DNA of 64,000 nucleotides, taken from Candidatus Woesearchaeota archaeon. Lineage in GTDB: Archaea > Nanobdellota > Nanobdellia > Woesearchaeales > GW2011-AR4. Location: the NCBI GenBank assembly GCA_016177615.1, contig JACOUX010000006.1:30131-94130 (forward strand). Direction: 5' to 3'. Below, in pieces: positions 7,299 through 30,094 of this stretch; position 1 is the stretch's first letter, and every line of letters begins with the position of its first letter. Both the position numbers and the translations under genes were made by a program. The notes under the pieces were generated by a model. The model had not been told where the DNA came from. It worked only from the letters and a program-made list of their open reading frames with translations, and did no database searches.

Positions 7299-7311
7299 TT
7301 TTATTTTTGAC

Positions 7312-8547
7312 TCATTTTCTTTTGACAAATATTTCCTGCCAGTCCTTCAGCGCCCCATCAGCAACTTCGACCCTGAAAGTAATGGATGGCTGGTCTAATA
7401 TGGCAGATTCGGGATTGCCCGGCAATTGCGCATATACACTATATGAAAGCTGGTCTTCATCCGGGTCCTCTGCATTTTTCTGGTAGCCCTGCAGCAGCTT
7501 GCTTTCATCTATCAGTTCATCTGCATCAAATTCTACAACATTGTTTATTATATAGTAAAGTGCCGGCGCCCTATTTTTTCTGGCAAAGATATATTGGAAT
7601 TGCCTGCCGTTCACCAGCGATTTTTGGTCAGTGATTATTATTATATCTGCTTTCGCCTTTGTTTCATCATTGTATGGGTATTCATTTTTGACTACGGCCA
7701 CGGTCATAAAATCTCTATTTTCTGCATTGCCCATATCAAATTTTATGCTTCTGGTGTCATTCCTGATTAAATTTTTCGCAAAAAAATAGATTTCCTTCAG
7801 CCTTACATTTACATTTGTAGAGAATTCGCTTAACTGTGATGACTCTTTTGTTTTTGCATCAGTTATTGTTATAGGAATCTTTGACTTGACGCTTATATCG
7901 CCGCTGCCTATGATCACTGTTGTATTGGGCTTTTTCATTGCTACGTTTATGCCCTGCTCCTTAAATATGTTGAAATTTGCGCATGCTGCCATGTTGTTGT
8001 TGATGAAAGATTCCATCTGGTCCTGAAAAGAATGAGGGCCTTCAGACGAGTTTATTGGGGGAAGATAGCTGATGCCGAAATAGCCTTCAAACTTTTCATT
8101 CGCATATCTTTCAGTATATGGGAATATTTTCCATGGATAATCCCCATTGTTTGTGTTTGAAGAATATGATATGTCGTCATAAGCTGCTGCAAAGCTTGGG
8201 GGCATGATGTTGTAGGAAACATTGTAGTTGTTGTATTTTACAAATAACATGCCCTCGCTTGTTTTAGGAGGAGCAAGGGTTACCCCTCCCTGTCCTTTGT
8301 ATATAACTCCGCCTTGGTTTCCTAATAAAATTAAAGAGTCTTTTGTAAGCTTGTCAAGGCATTTTACTACAAATTCCTTTATAGGACTTGTTTCAAGCGC
8401 AGTCTCCTGCACTTTTTTTATGCTCTGCTGGGTATTTTTTTTAATGGCGGACTTGGAGAGGTACAAGACAAGGCTTACTACTATGAATAATAAAAGTCCT
8501 ATAATAAGCAGCATTGTAACCTGCGATCTTGCAGATGCTTTGCTCAT
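7312..8547 (-). CDS. N-terminally membrane-anchored extracytoplasmic protein (~411 aa), unknown function; middle gene of the surface-protein operon
   Basis: ORF 7312..8580; the preferred start MSKASARSQVTMLLIIGLLLFIVVSLVLYL (8547) directly abuts the stop of the upstream 843-aa gene. Single N-terminal TM helix followed by Asn/Ser/Tyr-rich soluble domain. 13-nt gap to the giant gene downstream. Confidence 0.55.
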   Translation of the reverse strand: MSKASARSQVTMLLIIGLLLFIVVSLVLYLSKSAIKKNTQQSIKKVQETALETSPIKEFVVKCLDKLTKDSLILLGNQGGVIYKGQGGVTLAPPKTSEGMLFVKYNNYNVSYNIMPPSFAAAYDDISYSSNTNNGDYPWKIFPYTERYANEKFEGYFGISYLPPINSSEGPHSFQDQMESFINNNMAACANFNIFKEQGINVAMKKPNTTVIIGSGDISVKSKIPITITDAKTKESSQLSEFSTNVNVRLKEIYFFAKNLIRNDTRSIKFDMGNAENRDFMTVAVVKNEYPYNDETKAKADIIIITDQKSLVNGRQFQYIFARKNRAPALYYIINNVVEFDADELIDESKLLQGYQKNAEDPDEDQLSYSVYAQLPGNPESAILDQPSITFRVEVADGALKDWQEIFVKRK

Positions 8548-12769: not shown

Positions 12770-15700
12770 ATGGAAATCAACGTTTTGGAGCAGATAAAGA
12801 GGTTTCAGGATTTTATAGACGGCAACTACTATAAGTCATTGCTGGAGAATGCAAGAAAAGGGGATAGGTTTCTTATTATAGATTTTATAGAGCTTTCAAA
12901 GTACGATCCTGACCTTGCTACTCAGCTTCTTGATGCTCCTGAAGAAACTATAAAGGCAGTGGAAAAGGCGATCGAGCAGTTTGATATTGAGGGAATTTCC
13001 AGATTCAGGATAAGGTTCCATAACCTGCCACAGGGCCAGCACACAAAGATCAGGGATATAAGAAGCAAGCATATATCGCGGCTTGTATATGTCGAAGGGC
13101 TGATAAGGCAAAAATCTGATGTAAGGCCTCAGGTTACCTCGGCAAAATTTGAATGCCCTGCCTGCGGAAATATCATAAATGTCCTCCAGCTTGAAGGAAC
13201 TTTCAAAGAGCCGGCCAGGTGCGGATGCGGGAGAAAGGGAAAGTTTGTGGAGATTGGGAAAGAGCTTGTTGATGCGCAGGGCATTGTGATGGAAGAGGTG
13301 TCTGAAAATCTTGAAGGCGGAGAGCAGCCAAAGCGCATAAGCGTACTGCTGACAGACGATCTTGTAAGCCCGATCAGCGAAAAAAGAACAGCTCCGGGAA
13401 GCAAGGTTGGGATTATTGGAATTGTAAAGGAAGTCCCAATAATCTCCAGAACAGGTGCCAAGTCTACAAAATTTGATTTGATGATCGAGGCAAACTACGT
13501 CAAGCCTACCCAGGACACGTTTTATGAGGTCATGGTAAGCGATGAAGAGGAAAAGCAAATTCTGGAAATAGCTAACGACCCCAGGGGGTACGAAAAGCTG
13601 ATCAATTCCATTGCCCCCTCTATTTATGGCTACGAGAAGATAAAAGAAGCCCTGCTATTGCAGCTTATGGGAGGCGTAAGGAAAGTCAGGGCCGATAATG
13701 TGATCAGCAGAGGGGACTGCCACATTTTGCTAGTCGGTGATCCTGGAAGCGGAAAAAGCGCATTGCTCAAAAGAATAACCACTTTTGCCCCAAAAGGGAG
13801 ATATGTATCGGGCAAAGGGATTTCAGGGGCCGGAATAACTGCCGCTGTTGTTCGCGACGAATTTCTCAAGGGATGGGCTCTTGAAGCCGGAGCAATGGTT
13901 CTCAGCAGCGACGGGGTTGTTTGTGTTGACGAGCTTGACAAGATGAGCAATGAAGACAGGGCAGCGATGCATGAGAGCCTGGAAAACCAAAGCTATCACT
14001 ATAATACAGAGATAATGCTGTCTGATGGAAGCACCTTTAAGATTGGCAAATTTGTGGAAGAACTAATTGATAATAATAGGGACGAAGTTATTTTTGGAAA
14101 AAATTGTGAAATATTGCCTGTAAATAACGTAGAGCTTCTAACAACAGATTTTGAGAAAATTTTCCCTACAAAAGCAACAATGGTTAGTAAGCATAAAGCG
14201 CCAGATTACTTTGTCAAAATAACATATTCTAATGGAAGATCCATTATGGTAACTCCAGAACATCCCGTATATGTTTTCTACAATGGCAAGATAAGTGAAA
14301 CTCCAGCAGAGCAAGTAAAACAGGGTTTATTGGCTCCTGCACCAAGAAAATTGCCTACTAAAAGTAAAAATGTGGAATTTATTCCTAGTGGGCTTAATCA
14401 TTTCAACAATAAGGAAATTGAGTTTCCCTCAAGCCTTAACAACGGTCTTGCTAGGCTTCTTGGTTATATAACAACCGAGGGTTATGCTTATTTCAGCACA
14501 CAAAACAGATATGCCGAGGTTGGTATCTCCAACACGAATCCTTTTATAATTGATGAGATGTCGCTTTTATTTAAAGAAACTTTTAAAACTACAGTAAATA
14601 TCAATGTTCAATTTGCTAATAGTAGATCAAAGGCAAAAAAAGACATTGCAACAGTAAGAATTTGCTCTAAGCCATTTTATAATTATATATTCTCAAATTT
14701 TCGGGGAAGTGCAAATGGTGCTAAAAACAAGTACATCAATAATAGTCTGAGATGTGCTGATAAAGAGTTTCAATTGGAGTTTCTGAGAACCGCTTTTAAA
14801 GGTGATGGTTTTGTTGATAGCAGAAGATTTGGTTATTCTACTTCGTCTCTTGAATTGGCAAAGGGCTATCAGGATTTATTGCTTCAGAACAATATCGGCA
14901 GTCGAATAGACACAGAAAAAAGAAATTCTACAGAATATTATAAGGTAGCAATTACTGGTACAGAAGGTGCTGGCTTGTTTCTCAATAACATAGCCGAGGA
15001 AGATGATCATAGAATAAAGAGATTAAGCGAATTTTATAATGCAAGCAAAAACAAGAAAAATGAAAGAGATATTCTGCCAAGGGAAATATTGATTGAAGTT
15101 AATTTGCTTCTAAAAAGCTTTAATTTGAGTGATGGATATTTTATTAATAACATAAATAGGGGATTTAACGCGCATAAAGATGTAGTTTTAGGTTATATAA
15201 GAAAAATTGAAGATAAGCTAAAAGAATGTGATAAAGCTGTCCAACTCAACAATCCTAAAAAACTTAGGAGGTTACTGAATATTGAAGTAAATTTCCTCGC
15301 CAGAAATGTCAATGTTTCTGCTGGGACAATATACAATATAGAGAAGAAAAATAATTCTGCCAGGTATCATGAGTTAGTCAGAACCATAAAAAAACTTGGC
15401 AACGAGAAGATACAATTTACCAAATCTAAGGTAAATTATATTTTGAAACTTATTAATTCTGAAATTAGATTTCTTTACGTCAAAAAGGTAGAGAAAATAA
15501 AAAATGATGGGATGGAATGGGTTTATGATGTTACCGTTGAGCCTACAAGGACTTTTATAAGCGAAGGGTTGGTTTTACATAATACAATCAGCATTTCAAA
15601 GGCAAACATACAGGCGACATTAATTGCAAGGACTACTGTTCTCGCTGCTGCAAACCCGAAATTCGGAAGGTTTGATCCTTATGCTATAATAGCCGACCAG

Positions 15701-16384
15701 ATTGATCTTCCTCCTACCTTAATCAACAGGTTCGACCTCATCTTTCCCATAAAGGACTTGCCTGAAGAGACAAGAGATGAGAAAATGGCAAAGCATATCC
15801 TTACCCTTCACCAAAGCCCTGAGGTAAATGAGCCTGAGGTATCAACAGAGCTCTTAAGAAAATATGTTGCTTATGCGAGGCAGAAAGTGTCCCCAAAGCT
15901 TACTGATGGCGCTCTTGAAGAGATAAAAGATTTCTATTTAAAGATGCGAAAAGGAGGAGGCGAAGGGGGTATAAGGTCTGTTCCTATATCTGCAAGGCAG
16001 CTGGAAGCACTAGTCAGGCTGAGCGAAGCTTCTGCAAAAGCAAGGCTGGACGACAGGGTTACCAGAAAGGATGCAAAAAAAGCCATAGAGCTTCTTGATT
16101 ACTGCCTTATGCAGGTCGGATTTGACAAAGAGACTGGAAAGGTGGATATTGACAGGATAGCCACTGGTGTTGGAGCGTCGCAAAGAAGCCACATAATGGT
16201 TTTAAGGGATATAATAATCGAGCTTGAGTCCAAGCTTGGAAAATCTGTTCCAATGGAAGATGTCATGGCAGAAGCAAAGAGCCGCGGCTTGGATGAGGAT
16301 AAGGTTGAAGAAGCCCTTGAGAGGCTGAAGCGCTCGGGAGATGTTTATGAGCCTAAGAGAGGCCATGTAAGCAAATTGCCTTAA
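12770..16384 (+). CDS. mcm: MCM replicative helicase containing one intein
   Basis: C4 zinc finger CPACGN...CGCG, Walker A GDPGSGKS, Walker B VCVDELDKM, arginine finger SARQLEALVRLSEA, C-terminal wH. Host sequence ...HESLENQ | TISISKANIQATL is interrupted by a 531-aa insertion. Confidence 0.9.
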   Translation: MEINVLEQIKRFQDFIDGNYYKSLLENARKGDRFLIIDFIELSKYDPDLATQLLDAPEETIKAVEKAIEQFDIEGISRFRIRFHNLPQGQHTKIRDIRSKHISRLVYVEGLIRQKSDVRPQVTSAKFECPACGNIINVLQLEGTFKEPARCGCGRKGKFVEIGKELVDAQGIVMEEVSENLEGGEQPKRISVLLTDDLVSPISEKRTAPGSKVGIIGIVKEVPIISRTGAKSTKFDLMIEANYVKPTQDTFYEVMVSDEEEKQILEIANDPRGYEKLINSIAPSIYGYEKIKEALLLQLMGGVRKVRADNVISRGDCHILLVGDPGSGKSALLKRITTFAPKGRYVSGKGISGAGITAAVVRDEFLKGWALEAGAMVLSSDGVVCVDELDKMSNEDRAAMHESLENQSYHYNTEIMLSDGSTFKIGKFVEELIDNNRDEVIFGKNCEILPVNNVELLTTDFEKIFPTKATMVSKHKAPDYFVKITYSNGRSIMVTPEHPVYVFYNGKISETPAEQVKQGLLAPAPRKLPTKSKNVEFIPSGLNHFNNKEIEFPSSLNNGLARLLGYITTEGYAYFSTQNRYAEVGISNTNPFIIDEMSLLFKETFKTTVNINVQFANSRSKAKKDIATVRICSKPFYNYIFSNFRGSANGAKNKYINNSLRCADKEFQLEFLRTAFKGDGFVDSRRFGYSTSSLELAKGYQDLLLQNNIGSRIDTEKRNSTEYYKVAITGTEGAGLFLNNIAEEDDHRIKRLSEFYNASKNKKNERDILPREILIEVNLLLKSFNLSDGYFINNINRGFNAHKDVVLGYIRKIEDKLKECDKAVQLNNPKKLRRLLNIEVNFLARNVNVSAGTIYNIEKKNNSARYHELVRTIKKLGNEKIQFTKSKVNYILKLINSEIRFLYVKKVEKIKNDGMEWVYDVTVEPTRTFISEGLVLHNTISISKANIQATLIARTTVLAAANPKFGRFDPYAIIADQIDLPPTLINRFDLIFPIKDLPEETRDEKMAKHILTLHQSPEVNEPEVSTELLRKYVAYARQKVSPKLTDGALEEIKDFYLKMRKGGGEGGIRSVPISARQLEALVRLSEASAKARLDDRVTRKDAKKAIELLDYCLMQVGFDKETGKVDIDRIATGVGASQRSHIMVLRDIIIELESKLGKSVPMEDVMAEAKSRGLDEDKVEEALERLKRSGDVYEPKRGHVSKLP
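13991..15583 (+). mobile_element. Intein (531 aa) with LAGLIDADG homing-endonuclease domain inside the MCM ATPase domain
   Basis: Insertion between Walker B and sensor 1. It begins with Ser (SYHYNTEIM...) and ends ...GLVLHN followed by +1 Thr. Two LAGLIDADG-like motifs (LARLLGYITTEGYAY and LEFLRTAFKGDGFVD). Confidence 0.8.
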
Positions 16385-18484: not shown

Positions 18485-18556
18485 TTCTTGATAGAAAATC
18501 TCTAAATTTAAGATTAGCCATTTTGGTTTTGGAATTTCTTAATCAACTATTATTCT

Positions 18557-21500
18557 CTACCCAAACCATCTCCCTAACCCTTCCTGCTTTTCCTTGTCCC
18601 TTCCGAAGACTCCTTCCACTCTATCTTTAGTCAAAAGCAAAGTCTGCTTCAGGTAAGGGGGCAGGTTGTACTTGTCGGACAGGGAAATCGCAGGCTCGAG
18701 ATATTTTATTATTGCCCCCTCTGTAACTGTGAATATGAGCTTGCTTCCGCATTCCAGGCATTTCCCGGCCAAAGGGGGCCTCCTGTATTTTTCAGTGCAC
18801 TTGCTGCACCTGAACTGCTGTTGGGAGAATTTCCTTAAGTTTCCTCTTATGTCCCTCAGCAAATGCTTTTCAATGACCAGCCTTGCAACATCGGCTGCGT
18901 CAACCGCCCTTATCTTGTCTGCAAGGTCCATCTGCCCCTTTAGCTTGTCTTCCATTGAAGGGATTGTCTTGTATGAAGAGCACTTTACTCCCATGTTTAT
19001 GCTGCTGACGGGATGGGTGTAGTAAATTGCAGACGCCTCTTTTGAGCCTAGAATGTTTGCAATCCTTTGTATCTTGACATTGTGCGGCATCTCATAATTC
19101 AAAGCCGCTTCATAAAATTCCAAAGGGTATCTTTTGACAACATCCACATCGAATGCCATGTCATCAACTTCTGTCGGAACCAAAATGGATGTTAAAACTA
19201 ATGGCGCGTCCTGTGTCGCACCTCTTGTGTCTGGAAGAAACTGCTTTGAGAAATTTAGCAATACGTCCATTAGTAATGTTACTGAAGCTTCGTCGCCATC
19301 ACAATCGCGCCTAGTAGCAGCATGAAGCAGCGGATGGGCATAAAATGCCTGTGTTTTTGAAAACCCGATTATTCTTCCTATTATTCCAGCTGATGTGTGC
19401 GGAGCAAGCGCGACTACCAATTCTCCAATAAGGTCTTTTTCGGATTTAAGGTTGTAGAATTTGCCAAGCTTGTACAAAGACCCCAGCAGCTCATCTATAA
19501 ACAGGCTGACTTCGTAAAGAACCTTGTCTGCGCCTTTCTCAGGAGCATCCTCGCATTTGGGTAGTATTATATCCTGAGGCATCAACTCAATGATTTGTTC
19601 CTCATCCTCCAATTGGTTGGAGTTTATATCCTCAGTATACCCAAGCTGCCTGAGTTTCTCTATAGAGGTCCCTATCTCTCTTGGCTTGAAATGTGTTATC
19701 GGCAGTTGCGTCATATCATACCTTGTTGTGCCGTCTTTATTGACTGGTATGCCATATTTTGCCCTCAGTATACCTTTAGCCAAATGCTCGGGAATATGGT
19801 TTTTATTTGATGTCCCTCTAACCCCTTTTACCAGATCTGGATAATGGCTCATGCCTAAGTTAGCCAATATTCTGTTGAAGTAGTGGTTAATGTCAATTTT
19901 TTGCAGTTTATAGGTTGTTGTTTTTCCGTGAATGCATTTTTCATTTCTTATCGTGCCGCAAACCTTGCACAGGTGCATCTGTACGGACTTGGAATTGCAT
20001 TTCTCGCAGACAGGCATGATTGTTGGCTCCTTGCAGCTTTCGCAGAAATAAATCGGAAATTCTGCTGTTACGCCCCCAATTCCGAGGGCGCTTTGAAAAG
20101 ACCTTAGCTTGCCCCCTTCTTTGCCTACTGGAAAGAGCATATGAGGATCACCTTCCATTTTCCTGACTTTTCCTTTTTCGGGCCTGCCCATTCTTGCACC
20201 TATGAATGTGCCTGATTTGTCTCTTATCTTAATCTCAGATGACATATTTATAATTTCAATTGTGTTTTCGTTTATAACGCTTGCATATTTTTCATAAAAT
20301 TCTTCATTATCCAGGCTTAGAAGGGCATAGAATACCTCTGCTTCATTTTTCTCCAAAATAGTGAATTCATTATTCACATAGATATGCGGTGCACCTATAG
20401 ATTCCAGTACTTTCTTGGCTTTCTCGTTTTTTGGAAGAATTATTTTGCTTAGCTTGCTGTTTTCAAACTCCATCTTTGCATGCTTAAACCATGACAAAAT
20501 CTCAAGCAGCGATTCTCTTGAAATAATTTTCCAGTGGTAGGTATGAAATGGGTGGAGGGGGACACTTAAAATTCTGCTTAACGCTGCCGACTCGTATCCG
20601 TTGGGCTTTGAAATAAAATAATCCTGAATGAACGACTTTAGGTTTTCAACTGGAATTCCGCTCAGTTCAGATAATTTGCCAAAGTCATTGTTGAATAACT
20701 CCTTTATCGCCTGCTCTGCTTCAAGCGCCCACCATTCCTCACAATAGCCTGCAGGCACCAACTGATGCGCCCTGTTAAAAAAATCACCGTAATTTATCAA
20801 TATATCTCCCAAAAATATTATTTCGCTGATTTGGCTGGCTGACTGCTTTGCGATTTGTTCGCTGTGCACATATATAACACTCCCATCATTTAATTTGACT
20901 ATTGGACCCTCTAAGCAATCACATACTGTTATCGCTGTTGCTTTCCCGGGCCTTTCCACTTTCAGCTGGGTGCCTATCCCAAGGTATTTGTTTAGCACAT
21001 ACATAGTCGCAGGATGTATTGATGTAGCAGAATATCCTGACGTTCTGCATCTGCCGTACCTTAATCTGAACCCTCCAGTTGCAGAAGGGTGCCCCAAAAC
21101 CGGGCGTCCTGCAACCAGATCCTGAATGTATGTGTAAATCGGGGTTATTCCTTTCTTTGATGCCTTTTCTTTCGCTTTTATTTCCTTTTGCAGATGCACA
21201 AATTCCTGCAGAAAAGACCAGTGGCCAAGCTCAAACTCGTCTCCCCATTTTTTAAGCTGCGACCATACTTTGGGTGCCTTTTGCGCAATGCACTCCCCCA
21301 AAACAAGCGCGGGCCCGCTTCTTATCCTATTTGTAGCAATCCTATCTAGGTCTTTGTAGTTAGATACCTCAATTTCTTCTGAAGGGTCTCCATCTATTTG
21401 GACAGGGAGGTTGCTTACCAAAAAGGATATTTCTTTTTCGCTTGGCAGGTATTGAAGGTTTGTAACCCTTTCGTGATAATCATACAGTTCTGTTACCATC

Positions 21501-22060
21501 CTCCTGATTTCCTGCTCTGACGGGTCATAAGCTTCAAACCCCATTTTTTTCCTGATATAGTCCGCTATAACTGCGCTGACTGCCCCAGCTGTCCCGCCAG
21601 CGCTTCGTATTGGGCCGGAGTACATCAGCGAGAAATAATCTTTGCCGTCCCTGCGCTTGTTGATTTTTAGTTCCACAAACCCCTCAAGCGGCGATGCCAC
21701 AACACCCAATGTCAAATATGCGAGACCAATCCTTATGCCAGTCTCCATAGCAATCTTCTGTGAATCGAATTTGCAGAATCTTTCCTGAGACACTTCCAGC
21801 GAAATTGAAAGTGCAACCCTCCAGTCCGATTTTCCGTAAATGGCTTCCAATTCTTTGATTCTTTCCGGAATCCCACTATTCATGAGTTGGGGCACAACAA
21901 CACTTACAATACCTTCCACTCTTTCTGCCATATTTTTTGCGAGAGGTGCGCATACTATCGGTTCAGGATCATACCCTTTGGACCTTGCTTCAGAGGCTAT
22001 GGCGTAGCATTTCTCAATTTCTTCCGCCATCTTCTTGCTGGATTTTTCGTTGGTAATCAT
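18557..22060 (-). CDS. polC: DNA polymerase II (PolD) large subunit DP2
   Basis: 1167 aa; DP2-typical Cys clusters (CESCKEPTIMPVCEKCNSK...CKVCG; C-terminal CSKCTEKYRRPPLAGKCLECGS); global similarity to archaeal DP2. Confidence 0.9.
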   Translation of the reverse strand: MITNEKSSKKMAEEIEKCYAIASEARSKGYDPEPIVCAPLAKNMAERVEGIVSVVVPQLMNSGIPERIKELEAIYGKSDWRVALSISLEVSQERFCKFDSQKIAMETGIRIGLAYLTLGVVASPLEGFVELKINKRRDGKDYFSLMYSGPIRSAGGTAGAVSAVIADYIRKKMGFEAYDPSEQEIRRMVTELYDYHERVTNLQYLPSEKEISFLVSNLPVQIDGDPSEEIEVSNYKDLDRIATNRIRSGPALVLGECIAQKAPKVWSQLKKWGDEFELGHWSFLQEFVHLQKEIKAKEKASKKGITPIYTYIQDLVAGRPVLGHPSATGGFRLRYGRCRTSGYSATSIHPATMYVLNKYLGIGTQLKVERPGKATAITVCDCLEGPIVKLNDGSVIYVHSEQIAKQSASQISEIIFLGDILINYGDFFNRAHQLVPAGYCEEWWALEAEQAIKELFNNDFGKLSELSGIPVENLKSFIQDYFISKPNGYESAALSRILSVPLHPFHTYHWKIISRESLLEILSWFKHAKMEFENSKLSKIILPKNEKAKKVLESIGAPHIYVNNEFTILEKNEAEVFYALLSLDNEEFYEKYASVINENTIEIINMSSEIKIRDKSGTFIGARMGRPEKGKVRKMEGDPHMLFPVGKEGGKLRSFQSALGIGGVTAEFPIYFCESCKEPTIMPVCEKCNSKSVQMHLCKVCGTIRNEKCIHGKTTTYKLQKIDINHYFNRILANLGMSHYPDLVKGVRGTSNKNHIPEHLAKGILRAKYGIPVNKDGTTRYDMTQLPITHFKPREIGTSIEKLRQLGYTEDINSNQLEDEEQIIELMPQDIILPKCEDAPEKGADKVLYEVSLFIDELLGSLYKLGKFYNLKSEKDLIGELVVALAPHTSAGIIGRIIGFSKTQAFYAHPLLHAATRRDCDGDEASVTLLMDVLLNFSKQFLPDTRGATQDAPLVLTSILVPTEVDDMAFDVDVVKRYPLEFYEAALNYEMPHNVKIQRIANILGSKEASAIYYTHPVSSINMGVKCSSYKTIPSMEDKLKGQMDLADKIRAVDAADVARLVIEKHLLRDIRGNLRKFSQQQFRCSKCTEKYRRPPLAGKCLECGSKLIFTVTEGAIIKYLEPAISLSDKYNLPPYLKQTLLLTKDRVEGVFGRDKEKQEGLGRWFG

Positions 22061-22066
22061 TCTGGT

Positions 22067-23551
22067 TTATTGCCCAAACTTAAGGATTTTTATGTCTCTT
22101 GTGCCAAGGTTCACTATTGGAACTCTGCTCGGCTCTGGATTGTGGCCAACCTTTTCCTGAAAAGTAGTTTTTCCTTGCCAACAGCTGCCGCAGATTAGTG
22201 TAGTGTTCCTGTAATTGGAAGTTGATGATTTGTGTATATGGCCGCTGAGAAAAAAGTCAGGGACTTTCTCTATCACTAAATTGTCTTTTTTTGTGTCTGG
22301 GATGTATAAAGATGATAAGTGAGAAGGGGCCAAATGCCTTCTTTTTAGAAGGAACTTCATGATGAGGTCAGGCCTGTTATAACCACCTAGACTTCTCAAT
22401 GAGTCTACATTTGCCACAAAATAATCAAAAGAATAGCCATGATACATCAATACATCAAAGCCCGAAAAGTTACTTGTTGAGTTTATGTTTATCATTGAGG
22501 GGTTTGATACCATTATAACATTGCTCATTTCGTGCAGTGGCTTTGCAAAGTCTTTGGATAATTGTGGCTGCGGCTCTGCTATTCTCAGAGCATCATGGTT
22601 TCCAGGGCAGATAATCAATGGTATTTGGTGGGGGATCTGCCTTAAAAGACCTGCGCATTCTTCGTATTGCTCATAAATGTCTTTTGTAATGAGCTCTTTC
22701 TCTTGACCGGGGTACACCCCGCACCCATCAACTAAGTCTCCTGCAATAAAGATGTATTGGATTTTATTCGATATGCTTCTTTGCTGTTCGTTTCCCATCT
22801 TCCCGTTTATCCATTTCAAAAACCTTTCAAAATCTTCAGGCAAAAATTTTGAAGATCCAACGTGCAAGTCTGAGAGGAATATAGCATAAGATTCCTCCTC
22901 GTGCTTCTTGAGCTCCTTGCTCGCTGGTATGTCTGGCCACAGTATGTTATTGGCAAAAATAAAATTCTCTATGTTTACACCAACCACTCCTACAACCTCG
23001 TCCAGCACAATGTCTTTGGCCTCGTTGAAAAGCGCCGGCTTGTTTTTGTTTACTAGGACCTTTCTTTGACCTGTTGGGTCTTCCAAAAGCAAGAGGAGAT
23101 TTCCATTTTTTGTTGTTTGCTTGTAGCTGACCATTCCAATCACAGAAAGGGGCTCTTTTTCCCTTTTGTTTGGAATTTTCCCTATTGAAACCGTATTTTG
23201 CATCTCTTGCCTTTGCTTCAATATTTTTTCGATCGCTTTGTACCTGTTGTTGAAGTGGTCCACAAAATCCTGGATGTCCCTTTTCTTTGGCTCTTCTTTG
23301 TAAGAATAAACAATTTTTATTTCCCCTTGCTTTGGGGCTTCTGCCATTTCTGGCGATTTTGTGCATGTTAATTCTGTTAAACTGAAGTCCGCTACCGGAT
23401 CGTTAAGCTGTTTCGTCCTGATAACCTCAAAAATTCTGGATATCTTGTCATAGTCATTAATTCCCCTCAAAAAGTCAGGGCTTATGAGAATTCCTTTCTT
23501 TAAGCACGCTTCTATTACTTCCCGCTTTTTGTCTATAAGTTCCTGCTGCAT
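22067..23551 (-). CDS. polB: DNA polymerase II (PolD) small subunit DP1 (calcineurin-like phosphoesterase)
   Basis: Phosphoesterase motifs (IFLSDLHVGS, FIAGDLVDG, GNHD, GHIH). Start trimmed to the Met that avoids overlap with cdc6 (track ORF extends to 23647). Confidence 0.85.
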   Translation of the reverse strand: MQQELIDKKREVIEACLKKGILISPDFLRGINDYDKISRIFEVIRTKQLNDPVADFSLTELTCTKSPEMAEAPKQGEIKIVYSYKEEPKKRDIQDFVDHFNNRYKAIEKILKQRQEMQNTVSIGKIPNKREKEPLSVIGMVSYKQTTKNGNLLLLLEDPTGQRKVLVNKNKPALFNEAKDIVLDEVVGVVGVNIENFIFANNILWPDIPASKELKKHEEESYAIFLSDLHVGSSKFLPEDFERFLKWINGKMGNEQQRSISNKIQYIFIAGDLVDGCGVYPGQEKELITKDIYEQYEECAGLLRQIPHQIPLIICPGNHDALRIAEPQPQLSKDFAKPLHEMSNVIMVSNPSMININSTSNFSGFDVLMYHGYSFDYFVANVDSLRSLGGYNRPDLIMKFLLKRRHLAPSHLSSLYIPDTKKDNLVIEKVPDFFLSGHIHKSSTSNYRNTTLICGSCWQGKTTFQEKVGHNPEPSRVPIVNLGTRDIKILKFGQ

Positions 23552-23558
23552 GTCCCAA

Positions 23559-24764
23559 TTAAATATGAATGCTGTCTTCAAGAATGCTCTTGGTTTTTTG
23601 GAGTGTTGCTTCTGGGATTTCCAGGGATATCTCTCTTGTTCTGCCATACCTCCCTTTGGAAATCACTTTGGCATTTACTACCCCCATCATATCAAACTCG
23701 GATATAATATCTGAAACCCTTCTTTGTGTCAATGTGCTTATGTTTATCTTGCTGCACAGGGATTTGTAAACCCCATATACCTCCCCGGTGAACAGCGATT
23801 CCCTGCCGCGCTGCAAGGAGATTATGGAATAAAGCACAACCTGATATTGTTTTGGCTGAGTTGTTGCTATATCCATTATCCTGTCTCGATCTATCTTTTC
23901 CTCTGCTTCATCTATGTCTTCCAGAGTTATTGTTTTTGTGTTTTTCCTGTCTGCAACTTCCCCTGCAACCCTTAGAAGCTCCATGGCGCGCCTTGCATCC
24001 CCGTGGTCGCGAGCTGCGTAAGCCGCGCATTTCTCAATTACCCCCTGCCCCAAAACCCCTTTATTAAATGCGAATTCCGCTCTTTGCTTTAAAATGGATT
24101 GAATTTGGAGCGCGTTGTATGGAGGAAAAACAATTTCTTCTTCTGATAATGATGATCTGACCCTAGGATCGAGCCCATCAACAAACATTATGTCATTAGA
24201 TATCCCAATCAAAGAGATTTGTGATGTTGTGTCTTCTTCACTAATCCGTGTTAGGTTGTAAAGCGCATTGTCTCCCATCTTGTTAATGAGTTGGTCTATC
24301 TCATCGAGTATTATCACGTAGTTTTGATTTTGCTTATTTAATGCCTTAAAGAATGATCTGTAAACTTCTTCTGTAGGCAAACCTGTTGGGGGGATTTCCT
24401 TGCCGAGTTCCCTCGCAAGCTGCGCTATGAGCCTGTATTCTGTATCGGCGCTTCTCTTTAGCTTGCAATTGACATAAATTACCTTCAAAGGCAACTTCTC
24501 TTTTTCTGCTACGCTAGCCAGTTTTTGAGTGGTGTGTTTTACCGTAAGGGTTTTTCCTGTGCCTGTTTTGCCATAGACAAAGGTGTTTGAGGTTTTGTCC
24601 CCTTTTAAAGATGGTGCAAGGACATTGGCTACTTGTTTTATCTGGATTTCCCTATGTAAGACCGTTTCTGGAATATAGGATGCTTGAAGTGCCTTTTTAT
24701 CAGAAAAAACGCTCTTTTTCCTTAAAAAATCTTCAAAGAAGGTTTCTGTGTCCTTTTCTACCAT
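23559..24764 (-). CDS. cdc6: Orc1/Cdc6 replication initiator
   Basis: AAA+ Walker A GKTGTGKT, Walker B ILDEID, C-terminal wH; lies directly next to the ORB-containing AT-rich region. Confidence 0.9.
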   Translation of the reverse strand: MVEKDTETFFEDFLRKKSVFSDKKALQASYIPETVLHREIQIKQVANVLAPSLKGDKTSNTFVYGKTGTGKTLTVKHTTQKLASVAEKEKLPLKVIYVNCKLKRSADTEYRLIAQLARELGKEIPPTGLPTEEVYRSFFKALNKQNQNYVIILDEIDQLINKMGDNALYNLTRISEEDTTSQISLIGISNDIMFVDGLDPRVRSSLSEEEIVFPPYNALQIQSILKQRAEFAFNKGVLGQGVIEKCAAYAARDHGDARRAMELLRVAGEVADRKNTKTITLEDIDEAEEKIDRDRIMDIATTQPKQYQVVLYSIISLQRGRESLFTGEVYGVYKSLCSKINISTLTQRRVSDIISEFDMMGVVNAKVISKGRYGRTREISLEIPEATLQKTKSILEDSIHI

Positions 24765-24969
24765 AAATTTCCATACGAAATATAGGTATTTAAGCCTTTT
24801 CTTTGCTCAAGACTCCCCTTTATTTCGTATGGAAGTTGTTTATTGATTGTGTGTCTGTTTAATTAATATTTTTCTATATAGAAAAAATAATAAATAATAT
24901 AAAAAAATATAAAAAATAAAATATATAAAAAAATATAAAATATTTTCCAAAGGAAATGAAGGGCATGGG
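24765..24969. other. Candidate chromosomal replication origin (oriC): AT-rich DUE (24835-24944) flanked by inverted ORB elements
   Basis: ORB2 on minus strand (24813-24834, TTCCATACGAAATAAAGGGGAG, carries G-string). ORB3 on plus strand (24945-24969, TTCCAAAGGAAATGAAGGGCATGGG). mini-ORB1 (24769-24781, TTCCATACGAAAT) 5 bp upstream of the cdc6 ATG. These match the archaeal ORB consensus TTCCAgtGGAAAtGAAa...GGGG. The intervening ~110 bp is >90% A+T with aatataaaaaa repeats. Confidence 0.65.
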
Positions 24970-25187
24970 AAAACGCAACGGCTTTGCCCGAAAACTCGCC
25001 AAAGACTCGGTTTTTACCATCGCTCAGCTTATTTTTCCCTTACTTGATTGCAATTTTCTCTCTGGAACTCCGAAAATTGCTGGTTTTTATTGTAAATCAG
25101 CTTCGCATTTTGATGGCAAAAACTACTTTTCGGGCAAAGCCAAAAGCAACAAAACCTATTTATATAGGCGCCCAGACACTAGCGAAC

Positions 25188-25829
25188 ATGTATGGCATAA
25201 TGCGCTGGCTCATGCCAAGGGATGAAAAATTCTTCGAGATGTTGTTAGAGCAGGCGGAAATTGCTTTGCAAGGCGCCAAAGAGCTTAAAGATTTTGTAGA
25301 GAACTACTCAAATCTTGACAGAAACTGGCGCAAGTCAAAGTCGCAGTTAATAAGGGAAATAGAGCATAAGGGAGACAAAACAACCCACAAGCTCATTGAA
25401 AAGCTCAACAAGAGCTTTATAACGCCCATCGACAAGGAAGATATACACCAGATGGCCGTGCTTCTTGATGATGTAATTGATTTAATCAATGCTGTTGTGT
25501 TAAGGTTTAGCCTCCTTGGCATAGAAAGAATAGATATTTGCATAACCGAGCTGGTGGAAATTATTTACAAGTCTGTAGCCGAGCTGAACAAAAGCATTTC
25601 TGACTTGAGAAAGATGAAAGACATGAAAGAGTATTACATAAAGATACACAGCCTTGAAAATGAGGCAGACGAAGTATATTACAAGGGCATCGATGAATTA
25701 TTTCATTTCTACAAGAACCCCATTGACATTATGAAATACAAGGAAATTTACGAGCTTCTTGAGTCGGTTACAGATAAATGTGAAGACATCACCAATGTCA
25801 TTGAAGGCATAGTGGTCAAACATGCTTGA
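25188..25829 (+). CDS. PhoU-like phosphate-uptake regulator (DUF47 family)
   Basis: Helical protein that overlaps pit by 8 nt in an operon; TATA-like tttatata at 25161-25168. The track ORF 24984.. is an unsupported 5' extension across the origin. Confidence 0.6.
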   Translation: MYGIMRWLMPRDEKFFEMLLEQAEIALQGAKELKDFVENYSNLDRNWRKSKSQLIREIEHKGDKTTHKLIEKLNKSFITPIDKEDIHQMAVLLDDVIDLINAVVLRFSLLGIERIDICITELVEIIYKSVAELNKSISDLRKMKDMKEYYIKIHSLENEADEVYYKGIDELFHFYKNPIDIMKYKEIYELLESVTDKCEDITNVIEGIVVKHA

Positions 25830-26820
25830 AATCCCCATAGTGGTATTTATAGGGATTTTGCTCGCATTGGTATTTGATTTTGGCAATGGGCTAAATGATG
25901 CTGCAAACGCTGTTTCTACGATAATTGCTACGCGCGGCCTTAGCCTGCGCCAGGCTGTTCTTATGTCAGCGATAGGCAATTTCATCGGCGCTTTTATATT
26001 TGGTGTTGCTGTTGCAACAACCATTGGAAAAGGGCTGGTAATTCCGGAAATTGTTAATCCCTATATAATCATCACGGGCCTTGCCGGAGCTATTTTCTGG
26101 GTTTATTTTACAACCTATTTTGGCTTGCCCATATCTGCAAGCCACTCTTTGATAGGTGGTTATGTTGGAAGCGCCGTTGCTGCAGCAGGATTGAAAGCAG
26201 TTATTTTTTCCGGCATCACAAAAGTGTTGCTGTTTATATTTGCCGCCCCTTTGCTTGGAATGATTGTGGCATTTTTGTTCCAGCTGCTTATTTTTCACAT
26301 TTTTAAGAAATCAGATCCTTCGCAAGTCAATAAATATTTCAGGAAGCTCCAGATAGTGTCAGCATCTATTTATAGCATAGGCCACGGCACAAATGATGCA
26401 CAAAAGACGATGGGAATAATTGCAATACTCCTTTTCAGCGCAGGCATTCTTGGAAAAGAGTTTTATGTCCCTTTCTGGGTTGCTATTATGTCTTACGCAG
26501 CAATAGCCCTTGGCACCATTGCAGGCGGCTGGAAAGTGATTAAGACAATGGGGATGAGAATAACAAAGCTGCAGCCTGTTAATGGATTTTGCGCAGAAAC
26601 AGCAGGCTCCAGCGTAGTGATTGGCTCCACAATCCTAGGAATACCAGTAAGCACCACCCACGTTATAAGCGGCTCCATCATTGGAGTTGGTGTTCTAAAA
26701 AGAGTATCTGCAGTAAGGTGGGGTATTGCAAGAAACATTATGTGGGCATGGATACTTACAATGCCTGTGTCTGGGCTGGTAGGAGGATTAAGCTATTTTG
26801 CTGTAAAGCTCTTTATCTAA
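25822..26820 (+). CDS. pit: Inorganic phosphate transporter, PiT family
   Basis: Signature GNGLNDAANA... and HGTNDAQKTMGII repeats; ~10 TM helices. Confidence 0.85.
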   Translation: MLEIPIVVFIGILLALVFDFGNGLNDAANAVSTIIATRGLSLRQAVLMSAIGNFIGAFIFGVAVATTIGKGLVIPEIVNPYIIITGLAGAIFWVYFTTYFGLPISASHSLIGGYVGSAVAAAGLKAVIFSGITKVLLFIFAAPLLGMIVAFLFQLLIFHIFKKSDPSQVNKYFRKLQIVSASIYSIGHGTNDAQKTMGIIAILLFSAGILGKEFYVPFWVAIMSYAAIALGTIAGGWKVIKTMGMRITKLQPVNGFCAETAGSSVVIGSTILGIPVSTTHVISGSIIGVGVLKRVSAVRWGIARNIMWAWILTMPVSGLVGGLSYFAVKLFI

Positions 26821-28166: not shown

Positions 28167-28230
28167 TTCTGTAAGTGCCTAATCAGTTTAAGAAAATTAA
28201 AAGTGGAGATTATTCCCCTATGATAATAAA

Positions 28231-28372
28231 GTGGACAGCTTTTCTGTTTTCCCGTGCGGAGCACAGTACACACAGAAACGGAGGCTTGCTTAACTTCCGT
28301 GAACCCGCTAAAATGCGGACGCACTTTACTTTCGGGATGGGAACGGGTGAACCAAGCCCCTATGGCCGTCCA
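28231..28372 (-). rRNA. rrf: 5S ribosomal RNA (stand-alone gene), apparently with a ~29-nt hairpin insertion in loop C
   Basis: Minus strand reads UUGGACGGCCAUAGGGGCUUGGUUCACCCGUUCCCAUCCCGAA[AGUAAAGUGCGUCCGCAUUUUAGCGGGUU]CACGGAAGUUAAGCAAGCCUCCGUUUCUG...GUACUGUGCUCCGCACGGGAAAACAGAAAAGCUGUCCAC. This aligns with archaeal 5S (e.g. GGCGGCCAUAGCGGUGGGGUUACUCCCGUACCCAUCCCGAACACGGAAGAUAAGCCCACC...). Helix I (GGACGGCC/GGCUGUCC) and helix II (GGGGCUUG/CAAGCCUC) are complementary. GC-rich relative to surrounding intergenic DNA. Confidence 0.75.
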
Positions 28373-28476
28373 AGCTAAAAGGGAAGAAAACCCGGTTTAA
28401 AAATGTTGTGGAATTTTTTTGTTTTGCCTGAAAAGATTTTTAAAGCGAAGCTTATAATTTGCTCTTGGTGATTTAA

Positions 28477-29386: not shown

Positions 29387-30094
29387 ATGAATAAAATTTC
29401 TGAATTAGGAATAGAGAAAGTTACCCCTGATGAACTTATAGGCCCATTGAATGACATTGAGAAGAAGTTTGCTCCACCTTACCTTTTTCTTAAAGGAAAT
29501 CGTAAACTTATAGATAATCATCCTAGAGTCTCAATTATTGGTACTAGGCATCCTAGTGAGGGCGGAATAAATAACACTAGTAAATTAACGAAGTTTCTTC
29601 TTAAGAATGAAGTGGTTATTGTAAGTGGTCTTGCCCTAGGTATAGATACCGTGGCACATAAAACTGCGATTGAAAATGGTGGTAGAACCATAGCTGTGTT
29701 AGGTACGCCTCTTGATAGGTATTACCCAAAACAGAATAGTGATTTGCAGGATGAAATTGCGAGAGACAATTTAGTAATCTCACAATTTTCCTTAGGGTCA
29801 GCCATACAAAGGAAGAACTTCCCTCTACGTAATAGAACAATGGCATTGCTTTCTCATGTTTCAATTATTGTTGAAGCAGGGGAGGGTAGTGGAACAATTC
29901 ACCAAGGATGGGAAGCACTTCGTTTGGGTCGACCATTATTTCTTATTGAAGATATAATTAAGAATAAGAATCTAAAATGGCCACATAAATTAATTGGATA
30001 TGGTGCTAAAATTCTTCCAATTTCTCAAGCCAAATTTGTGCTTGAATCTTTACCAGTCCCCATGCTAGAGGCGGGGAACTATGCTACTTTCTGA
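29387..30094 (+). CDS. DprA/Smf-like Rossmann-fold (SLOG superfamily) protein; Rossmann core only, no SAM or wH domains
   Basis: RVSIIGTRHPSEGG...VVIVSGLALGIDTVAHKTAIENGGRTIAVLGTPLDRYYPKQN...NFPLRNRTMALLSHVSIIVEAGEGSGT matches the DprA Rossmann motifs (GxRxxS, SGxAxGID..AH, TIAVLG.G.D..YP, RNR, VVEA...SG). Confidence 0.8.
   Translation: MNKISELGIEKVTPDELIGPLNDIEKKFAPPYLFLKGNRKLIDNHPRVSIIGTRHPSEGGINNTSKLTKFLLKNEVVIVSGLALGIDTVAHKTAIENGGRTIAVLGTPLDRYYPKQNSDLQDEIARDNLVISQFSLGSAIQRKNFPLRNRTMALLSHVSIIVEAGEGSGTIHQGWEALRLGRPLFLIEDIIKNKNLKWPHKLIGYGAKILPISQAKFVLESLPVPMLEAGNYATF

Follow-up and report, generated by a model that had tools for sequence, protein, structure and literature searches.

The closest described counterparts of the locus reported here are the replication origins of Sulfolobus and Pyrococcus. 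In Sulfolobus oriC1, the inverted origin recognition boxes (ORBs) ORB2 and ORB3 flank a duplex unwinding element (DUE) within approximately 130 bp, and both boxes are essential, as is a motif inside the DUE, ucm, which is bound by the protein UBP (PMC12141716). UBP is reported in Sulfolobales and Desulfurococcales only, and whether analogues of ucm and UBP exist in other archaeal lineages has been raised explicitly as a question (PMC12141716). The Pyrococcus origin extends over about 0.8 kb; its 13-bp mini-ORBs are numerous, its A+T-rich DNA forms two regions, and dp1 harbours another ORB cluster. ORB1 and ORB2 of Pyrococcus furiosus, with the core TTCCAGTGGAAATGAAA, bind Cdc6 in vitro (PMC1904270). 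Among DPANN archaea, the origin of Candidatus Forterrea was mapped by skew next to cdc6 (PMC5905446). Complete Nanobdellota genomes, which measure 0.55-2.7 Mb, are routinely rotated to ORC1/Cdc6, reported there as a core gene present in single copy (bioRxiv 10.64898/2026.05.13.725050). No ORB-level description of a DPANN origin was found in the searchable literature, where such origins are located through the position of cdc6 or through skew. Here we describe the spacer upstream of the orc1/cdc6 gene in a 64,000-nt stretch of contig JACOUX010000006.1 from Candidatus Woesearchaeota (the window, in what follows). Judged from its sequence, and with a probability that we put at roughly 0.85, this spacer is the, or a, chromosomal origin of the oriC1 type (Orc1-1/ORB) of this Woesearchaeal archaeon.

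The locus comprises the following features, with positions counted from the first base of the window.

23559-24764, minus strand: orc1/cdc6 gene of the Orc1-1 type, with Pfam domains Cdc6_C, Cdc6_lid, and AAA
24768-24791, plus strand: promoter-proximal ORB, earlier called a mini-ORB, with the core TTCCATACGAAAT at 24769-24781, an exact core match
24785-24806, minus strand: predicted cdc6 promoter, with the TATA box CTTAAATACC at 24785-24794 and, upstream of it, the purine-rich sequence GCAAAGAAAAGG at 24795-24806, which resembles a transcription factor B recognition element (BRE)
24813-24834, minus strand: proximal ORB, TTCCATACGAAATAAAGGGGAG, with the dyad (TTCCA) end abutting the DUE and the G-string towards cdc6
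24835-24944, no strand: DUE, the 110 bp between the two inverted ORBs, assigned on composition, stability ranks, and repeats
24873-24884, no strand: central palindrome, TTCTATATAGAA (12 bp), at the switch from T-rich to A-rich sequence; a candidate factor-binding or initiation site
24945-24969, plus strand: distal ORB, TTCCAAAGGAAATGAAGGGCATGGG, with the dyad end abutting the DUE and the G-string pointing away from it

All three boxes, which an earlier note on this DNA had predicted from the letters alone, were read back on the strands and at the positions given for them when positions 24400-25400 were reexamined. The two full ORBs stand in inverted orientation (24813-24834 on the minus strand and 24945-24969 on the plus strand) and bracket a DUE of about 110 bp, as that note had it, so that the ORB-DUE-ORB unit spans 157 bp. 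The third box, described there as a mini-ORB 5 bp from the cdc6 start, is indeed present, but the gap amounts to four bases, and the box scores as a full ORB. The pattern TTCCANNNGAAAT (TTCCA-N3-GAAAT) has three exact matches in the 64 kb, all of them at this locus and within 200 bp, against 0.52 expected by shuffling; one of 100 shuffles gave three matches anywhere in the window. A search for further matches of the TTCCA-N3-GGAAAT type, which the same note had proposed for the genome and which was made here on the window, returned no exact core match elsewhere in the 64 kb; 13-mer cores with one mismatch are no more frequent outside the locus than chance predicts (15 observed versus 12.4 expected). 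A matrix trained on the relatives only and run over 128,000 positions of the window ranks the proximal ORB (27.3 bits), the promoter-proximal ORB (24.6 bits), and the distal ORB (23.9 bits) at the top, with the next match at 13.6 bits. The same scan finds no second ORB cluster within dp1 or anywhere else in the window. It gives nothing above 8 bits in positions 18500-24760, and the intergenic region holds the three boxes only; on this count, a Thermococcales-type oriC was considered and rejected.

The DNA between the inverted boxes has an A+T content of 90.9% over 110 bp, which rises to 97.7% in an 86-bp core (24859-24944). No other 100 bp of the window are as rich in A+T or as unstable, with a nearest-neighbour dG here of −93.7 kcal/mol versus a window mean of −130.9 (standard deviation, 7.8). 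The earlier description of an element of more than 90% A+T made of aatataaaaaa-type repeats holds, as 6.8 copies of ATATAAAAAA follow each other with a 10-bp period and form helix-phased A-tracts at 24876-24940. On the plus strand, positions 24835-24872 of the DUE form a T-rich arm and positions 24885-24944 an A-rich one, and the palindrome TTCTATATAGAA between these arms supplies almost all of the G and C of the DUE core.

A genome scan with the Cdc6 protein yielded 32 orthologous loci, in which conservation was followed; they belong to Woesearchaeota, Pacearchaeota, Aenigmatarchaeota, and further DPANN lineages. Among the numbered sequences used below, L065-L072 are close-relative loci, L035-L042 are assemblies of the window population, and L043-L064 are metagenomic elements treated with the right flank. 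Within the 14.3 kb that lie up to 450 bp upstream of cdc6, 54 copies of the core TTCCANNNGAAA are found, compared with 14 in the other 183.7 kb of the 32 loci, which corresponds to 3.77 versus 0.076 per kb, or an enrichment of about 50-fold (Poisson P ~1e-70). It is present upstream of cdc6 in 30 of the 32 loci. Positions 17-21, which are outside the search pattern, are conserved as GGKGT (GG(G/T)GT), and the clade ORB consensus reads TTCCA-tAn-GAAA-T-rAA-GGKGT, a dyad with a G-string. A head-to-head layout around the A+T peak is seen in 24 of the 32 relatives, with ORBs pointing away from cdc6 upstream of the peak and ORBs pointing towards cdc6 downstream of it; from these directions, the TTCCA ends face the DUE and the G-strings point outward, as in the window. 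The same number of relatives (24/32) have a reverse-oriented equivalent of the distal ORB upstream of the peak, and close relatives have an equivalent of the proximal ORB at −70. In a fine-structure alignment of 11 origins whose Cdc6 proteins are approximately 75-80% identical, the distal ORB, the palindrome, the proximal ORB, the purine block with the TATA box, and the reverse ORB before the ATG are invariant, while the remainder of the DUE varies freely.

The central palindrome, TTCTATATAG(AA), is shared by every one of the 11 aligned origins, L068 deviating at a single base. Its 10-mer occurs once in the window and not at all in 180 kb of flanking DNA of the relatives; it is exact in the DUE of L001, L002, L005, and L014, and variants are present in L018, L023, and L024, so that it extends to more distant relatives (L005, L014, L018, L023, and L024). 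A k-mer survey of the inter-ORB regions of all DPANN loci found the palindrome in 7 loci versus a null maximum of 6, and because this support is modest, whereas that from the closer clade is strong, the motif is best regarded as a feature of a Woesearchaeal sub-clade. In all 10 origins measured, read in the cdc6 orientation, the T-A skew is positive on the side of the distal ORB (T-rich arm, +0.30 to +0.83) and negative on the side of the proximal ORB (A-rich arm, −0.41 to −0.70). Measured from its centre, the palindrome is 43-46 or 54-55 bp away from one ORB, and its distance from the other is 48-49, 58-59, or 67-72 bp; the values form classes about 10 bp apart, which may reflect a constraint on helical phase or may reflect the mere gain and loss of a 10-bp repeat unit. 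From the asymmetry of the arms and the spacing of palindrome and ORBs, the whole origin is read as dyad-symmetric about the palindrome.

We propose tentatively, and regard as doubtful, that TTCTATATAGAA is a previously undescribed essential element of Woesearchaeales origins. One possibility is that it serves as the site of a dimeric accessory factor, a functional analogue of Sulfolobus ucm and UBP with an unrelated sequence; the TATA-binding protein (TBP) is a candidate binder, because the core of the palindrome is TATA-like. Another possibility is that it marks the point where two MCM hexamers meet and synthesis starts. Beside the TTCCA ends of the ORBs there is also a CA-rich word, ACACAAA or AACACAAA on the ORB-sense strand, which recurs in 8-9 loci versus a null maximum of 6. 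It lies at 24835-24860 in the window and in the DUE-side flanks of the ORBs in relatives, and may be an extended ORB footprint or part of the arm asymmetry; we favour the latter over an element in its own right.

The initiator encoded next to these boxes belongs to the Orc1-1 type. Its best matches in the PDB are Orc1-1 of Sulfolobus solfataricus (2QBY_A, 4e-104) and ORC1 of Aeropyrum pernix (2V1U, 1e-98), both of them ORB-bound structures, and the matches to Orc1-3 (5e-45) and ORC2 (2e-20) are weaker. Residues G128/L129, R348, and R372 align with G120/L121 of the initiator-specific motif (ISM), R341 of the helix-turn-helix, and R365 of the wing of S. solfataricus Orc1-1, and mutation of these residues in the Sulfolobus protein weakens origin binding (PMC3089459). 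A protein 100% identical to the Cdc6 of the window carries the name Candidatus Woesearchaeota. No second cdc6 was found within the window. Some Woesearchaeota (L033 and L034) have a second, divergent Orc1/Cdc6 paralogue with 24-25% identity over the AAA+ region.

Eight independent short-read assemblies contain an identical cdc6 gene and origin-proximal sequence. Five of the eight match the window exactly across all of the upstream sequence that they cover, and in the other three the differences are confined to the last ~10-20 bases at the contig end. Because independent assemblies carry it, the origin sequence is not an assembly artefact. The contig ends of these assemblies (L035-L042) map to window positions 24854-24879, 25004, 25028, and 25076, and fall within the DUE or within the palindrome of an inserted element described below; three of them end at 25076, about 15 bp from the centre of that palindrome. 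Ends inside a DUE or a palindrome are an assembly hazard for origins of this type.

The promoter-proximal ORB occupies the interval from the TATA box to the ATG of cdc6, and its G-string half overlaps the TATA box. The proximal ORB is 16-20 bp upstream of this TATA box, so that the two ORBs enclose the TATA/BRE region. The block TTTAWATACC and the AAAGAAAA block are invariant in the 11-origin alignment. The centre of the TATA box is approximately 26 bp from the ATG, which suggests that the cdc6 mRNA is leaderless. The box is kept at −5 to −8 in L001, L002, L003, L005, L014, L018, and L065-L072. As an invariant ORB between TATA and ATG in the aligned origins, the third box is better termed a putative core-promoter operator than a generic mini-ORB, and Orc1 probably represses the cdc6-polD operon through it. 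A bacterial promoter and terminator scan of the window was uninformative for an archaeon.

By analogy with Sulfolobus, Aeropyrum, and Pyrococcus, we infer how this anatomy might serve Orc1 binding, MCM loading, origin firing, and autorepression, and what role the palindrome might have. Orc1-1-type monomers made from the adjacent gene would bind the inverted ORBs at 24813-24834 and 24945-24969 with defined polarity, the winged helix contacting the TTCCA-N3-GAAA dyad and the ISM of the AAA+ domain contacting the GGKG G-string. With the dyad ends of both boxes facing the 110-bp DUE, ATP-bound Orc1 would recruit two MCM hexamers onto the inter-ORB duplex by way of the MCM C-terminal winged helix, and the N-terminal tiers of the two hexamers would face each other. 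ATP-bound Orc1-1 has been found to recruit MCM without melting the DNA (PMC3607249, PMC12141716). Unwinding and bidirectional synthesis would begin in the easily melted DUE, which is made up of a T-rich arm, TTCTATATAGAA, and an A-rich arm; on this geometry, a helicase moving outward would probably have the T-rich strand of its arm in its central channel. The window contains every part that such a scheme calls for, namely, two inverted ORBs 110 bp apart, its least stable DNA between them, and an MCM with the archaeal winged helix. The third ORB, which with the proximal ORB brackets the promoter, would let Orc1 repress its own cdc6-polD operon.

Strand asymmetry was analysed over the 47 genes of the 64 kb with a model in which the skew of each gene is the sum of a coding-strand term and a side-of-breakpoint term. 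For GC skew at all positions, the best breakpoint is the gap between cdc6 and the DUF47 gene on its other side, which lowers the residual sum of squares by 20% (gene-order permutation P = 0.025). For third-position (GC3) skew, the best breakpoint is at 30.7 kb, within 6 kb of the site, and the fit at the origin is nearly equal (P = 0.004). This check, which the earlier note had wanted for the full contig and which was made here on the window, returned a significant step that coincides with the site or lies close to it, but its sign is unexpected. The step is negative in both cases, with C exceeding G on the plus strand to the right, opposite to the convention of bacterial and Pyrococcus origins, and this, for 64 kb and 47 genes, may count against a replication origin at this site, as may several further points. 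Raw GC skew tracks the gene strand and changes sign many times; the genes are weakly co-directional with diverging forks (79% of coding bases to the left and 60% to the right); the window covers 64 kb of a genome of about 1 Mb; and a comparable origin is dispensable in Thermococcus kodakarensis together with Cdc6 (PMC5663688), so that a canonical sequence is no proof of use. The right flank is a possible confounder of the skew because it is non-syntenic with the relatives, and we speculate that the right-hand DNA moved in recently and kept an earlier skew. Separately, an open reading frame (ORF) of >2,440 amino acids (7.3 kb; 3-7328, minus strand), which continues beyond the left end of the window, has a strong effect on local skew statistics.

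The origin reading is carried by the sequence anatomy of the locus, its departure from randomness, its conservation across DPANN loci, the Orc1-1 identity of the initiator, and the DNA-contact residues that the initiator has kept. The boxes might instead be Orc1 autoregulatory operators only, the A+T tract being ordinary intergenic or promoter DNA and replication starting elsewhere or being driven by recombination. Promoter control is itself very plausible, with one ORB between TATA and ATG and a second one 16-20 bp upstream of TATA, and the "wrong" sign of the skew step and the replication of T. kodakarensis without Cdc6 or its origin (PMC5663688) agree with such a restricted role. The distal ORB, however, is 180 bp upstream, on the far side of the least stable DNA, and has no role at the cdc6 promoter, and the inverted pair surrounds the A+T peak in 24 of the 32 relatives, including those that have no promoter-proximal ORB. 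Promoters are not marked by dyad-symmetric arms or by phased spacing, and the geometry is that of the experimentally validated oriC1 of Sulfolobus (PMC12141716). Operators only, in the presence of this distal half, are unlikely.

A further reading, which we hold to be very unlikely, accepts the locus as a genuine origin but takes it to be dormant or to be accompanied by others, with the main start site elsewhere on the chromosome. Room for such a site is left by the 64 kb covered, and precedent by the divergent Orc1 paralogues of some Woesearchaeota (L033 and L034; 24-25% identity) and by the multiple and dormant origins of other archaea (PMC4595724, PMC4010727). Against these stand the single-copy status of ORC1/Cdc6 as a core gene in complete Nanobdellota genomes (bioRxiv 10.64898/2026.05.13.725050), a window in which neither a second cdc6 nor a second ORB cluster was found, and the ancestral and broadly conserved nature of the Orc1-1-linked origin (PMC4010727, PMC3914693). 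A last reading, in which A+T-rich DNA matches the ORB pattern by chance or the repeats are bound by some other transcription factor, draws on the chance frequency of the one-mismatch 13-mer (15 observed versus 12.4 expected) and is effectively refuted by the remaining evidence: the exact matches are clustered and above expectation, a gap of 10 bits separates them from the next matrix match, the core is enriched about 50-fold upstream of cdc6 in relatives, the G-string positions that were not part of the search are conserved, the core is identical to that of the Pyrococcus ORBs that bind Cdc6 (PMC1904270), and the DNA-contact residues of Orc1 are kept.

The neighbourhood of the putative origin contains the following features.

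12770-16384, plus strand: MCM helicase gene (1204 amino acids), with Pfam domains MCM, MCM_OB, MCM_lid, MCM_N, MCM_WH_arc, Intein_splicing, and LAGLIDADG_3
18557-22060, minus strand: PolD large subunit gene (DP2), with Pfam domains PolC_DP2_N, PolC_DP2_central, and PolC_DP2_cat, E 1e-83 to 1e-114
22067-23551, minus strand: PolD small subunit gene (DP1), with Pfam domains Metallophos and DNA_pol_E_B
24970-25150, no strand: insertion resembling a miniature inverted-repeat transposable element (MITE), outside the origin core; the element itself is at 24980-25141 (162 bp) and has perfect 15-bp terminal inverted repeats, GGCTTTGCCCGAAAA
25188-25829, plus strand: DUF47/PhoU_div gene, with its own TATA box TATTTATATA at 25157-25166; PhoU_div residues 11-211 match positions 9-214 of the profile
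25822-26820, plus strand: PHO4/Pit phosphate transporter gene (PHO4 E = 1e-91), which follows the DUF47 gene

Pfam identifies cdc6, DP1, and DP2 in this order, which agrees with the earlier placement of the origin directly upstream of cdc6-polD. The DP1 frame is open as far as 23647 (526 amino acids), and gene calls on identical DNA (L035-L041) give a protein of 494 amino acids that starts 8 bp past the cdc6 stop. The MCM gene lies 8 kb from the origin and encodes the archaeal C-terminal winged-helix domain; the P-loop domain of the protein is split by an intein with a LAGLIDADG homing-endonuclease domain.

On the other side, synteny with the relatives is lost right at the distal origin edge (window 24970-26820 compared with positions 1-1500 of L065-L072). 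At the origin, the flank of the relatives consists of a divergent TrmB-family regulator and ribosomal protein L3, and that of the window consists of the MITE and the DUF47-Pit pair; neither the TrmB-family regulator nor the L3 gene was found anywhere in the 64 kb. The MITE is inserted 10 bp beyond the distal ORB, between direct repeats of 10 and 9 bp (AAAACGCAAC at 24970-24979 and AAAAGCAAC at 25142-25150; AAAA(C)GCAAC). It is an imperfect palindrome that folds into a long hairpin on either strand (z = −4.9 and −4.3), has one copy in the window, and is absent from the orthologous spacers of relatives. A metagenome scan for the two termini of this element, 118-146 nt apart, retrieved 22 elements (L043-L064) with the same termini, shared over 15-18 bp, and unrelated palindromic interiors, several of them with perfect 9-bp target duplications. 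At least one copy, L058, is on a soil acidobacterial contig, where the homologues of the neighbouring protein are named Pyrinomonadaceae, and the terminal-repeat family thus appears to span both domains. Soil Thaumarchaeota had been considered as hosts of the metagenomic copies and were rejected, the only host checked (L058) being an acidobacterium.

The element at 24980-25141 resembles known MITEs in being short and non-coding, with perfect terminal inverted repeats, a palindromic body, a 9/10-bp flanking repeat, and termini that recur at other sites, and it differs from them in that its metagenomic kin have unrelated interiors. On these features, it is judged to be a MITE-type insertion and not part of the origin core. 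Assignment of the spacer 24975-25146 to a known non-coding RNA was rejected, since a permissive Rfam scan of 24600-25400 gave only sub-threshold chance matches. The ORFs called at 24956-25225 and 24984-25187 are not genes, as had been supposed: neither has a Pfam match, and they span the distal ORB, the MITE, and the TATA box and promoter of the DUF47 gene. These spurious frames are explained by the MITE, which abuts the distal ORB. The first (89 amino acids) is a singleton "hypothetical protein" among 5.8 billion proteins, and the second is a non-coding TTG extension upstream of the DUF47 gene. Farther to the right are a stand-alone 5S rRNA gene (28230-28373, minus strand; Rfam, 58 bits), 3.3 kb from the origin, and a gene for a DprA-family (DNA_processg_A) protein (29387-30094, plus strand), 4.4 kb from the origin and unusual-looking for an archaeon. 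No 16S rRNA, 23S rRNA, or tRNA gene was found in the 64 kb, where an Rfam scan at the gathering thresholds returned the 5S rRNA only.

To a specialist, an origin upstream of cdc6-polD would come as no surprise. What is added to existing knowledge is useful and testable, namely, a DPANN ORB consensus, an operator at the cdc6 promoter, and an invariant central palindrome with dyad-symmetric arms. A base-resolved origin provides a reliable anchor for closing and orienting the genomes of uncultivated DPANN archaea and helps to estimate growth rates from peak-to-trough ratios in metagenomes. This reduced lineage has kept the Orc1-1/ORB system together with the DNA-contact residues, and the central palindrome with its strict dyad symmetry is a candidate accessory site of an origin outside the Crenarchaeota. 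The MITE, the break in synteny, and the assemblies that end in the DUE or the palindrome explain why contigs of metagenome-assembled genomes frequently end here and why spurious ORFs are annotated.

In comparison with the systems described so far, the locus shares with the origin of Candidatus Forterrea its place on a DPANN chromosome beside cdc6; the latter was placed by skew and Z-curve, with no ORB or DUE anatomy described in the accessible part of the report (PMC5905446), whereas here this anatomy is resolved and the skew step has an unexpected sign. The match to the oriC1 architecture of Pyrococcus and Sulfolobus that had been claimed for the locus extends to the inverted ORBs, the DUE, and the Orc1-1 initiator, Thermococcales-type arrays excepted. 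With Pyrococcus and the Thermococcales, the locus has in common the gene order oriC-cdc6-DP1-DP2, the core TTCCA-N3-GAAAT-GAA of P. furiosus ORB1 and ORB2 (PMC1904270), and two long ORBs arranged as an inverted repeat around A+T-rich DNA. It differs in being far more compact: 200 bp hold its only three boxes, mini-ORB arrays are absent, and dp1 contains no ORB cluster. The G-string follows four bases after the GAAAT-type core, whereas approximately nine bases separate them in Pyrococcus (P. furiosus ORB1, reverse complement TTCCAGTGGAAATGAAACTCTGGGGGG).

In the register of the G-string and the span of the ORB-DUE-ORB unit, the oriC1 origins of Sulfolobus and Aeropyrum are closer than that of Pyrococcus. 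There, as here, an ORB consists of a dyad and a G-string four bases after GAAA, and A. pernix ORB4 (CTCCACAGGAAACGGAGGGGT) has the same G-string register. The ORB3-DUE-ORB2 arrangement of Sulfolobus/Saccharolobus oriC1 also lies beside orc1-1 and has inverted ORBs around a DUE, with a span of 157 bp here versus approximately 130 bp (PMC12141716). A conserved motif within the DUE, about midway between the ORBs, is a further likeness to Sulfolobus oriC1, although here this motif is the palindrome TTCTATATAGAA and not ucm, ATTATACAAAC. With up to one mismatch, ucm has no match in the origin and two elsewhere in the window, which is chance level. The locus also differs from Sulfolobus oriC1 in carrying an extra ORB on the core promoter of cdc6 and in belonging to a DPANN archaeon with PolD.

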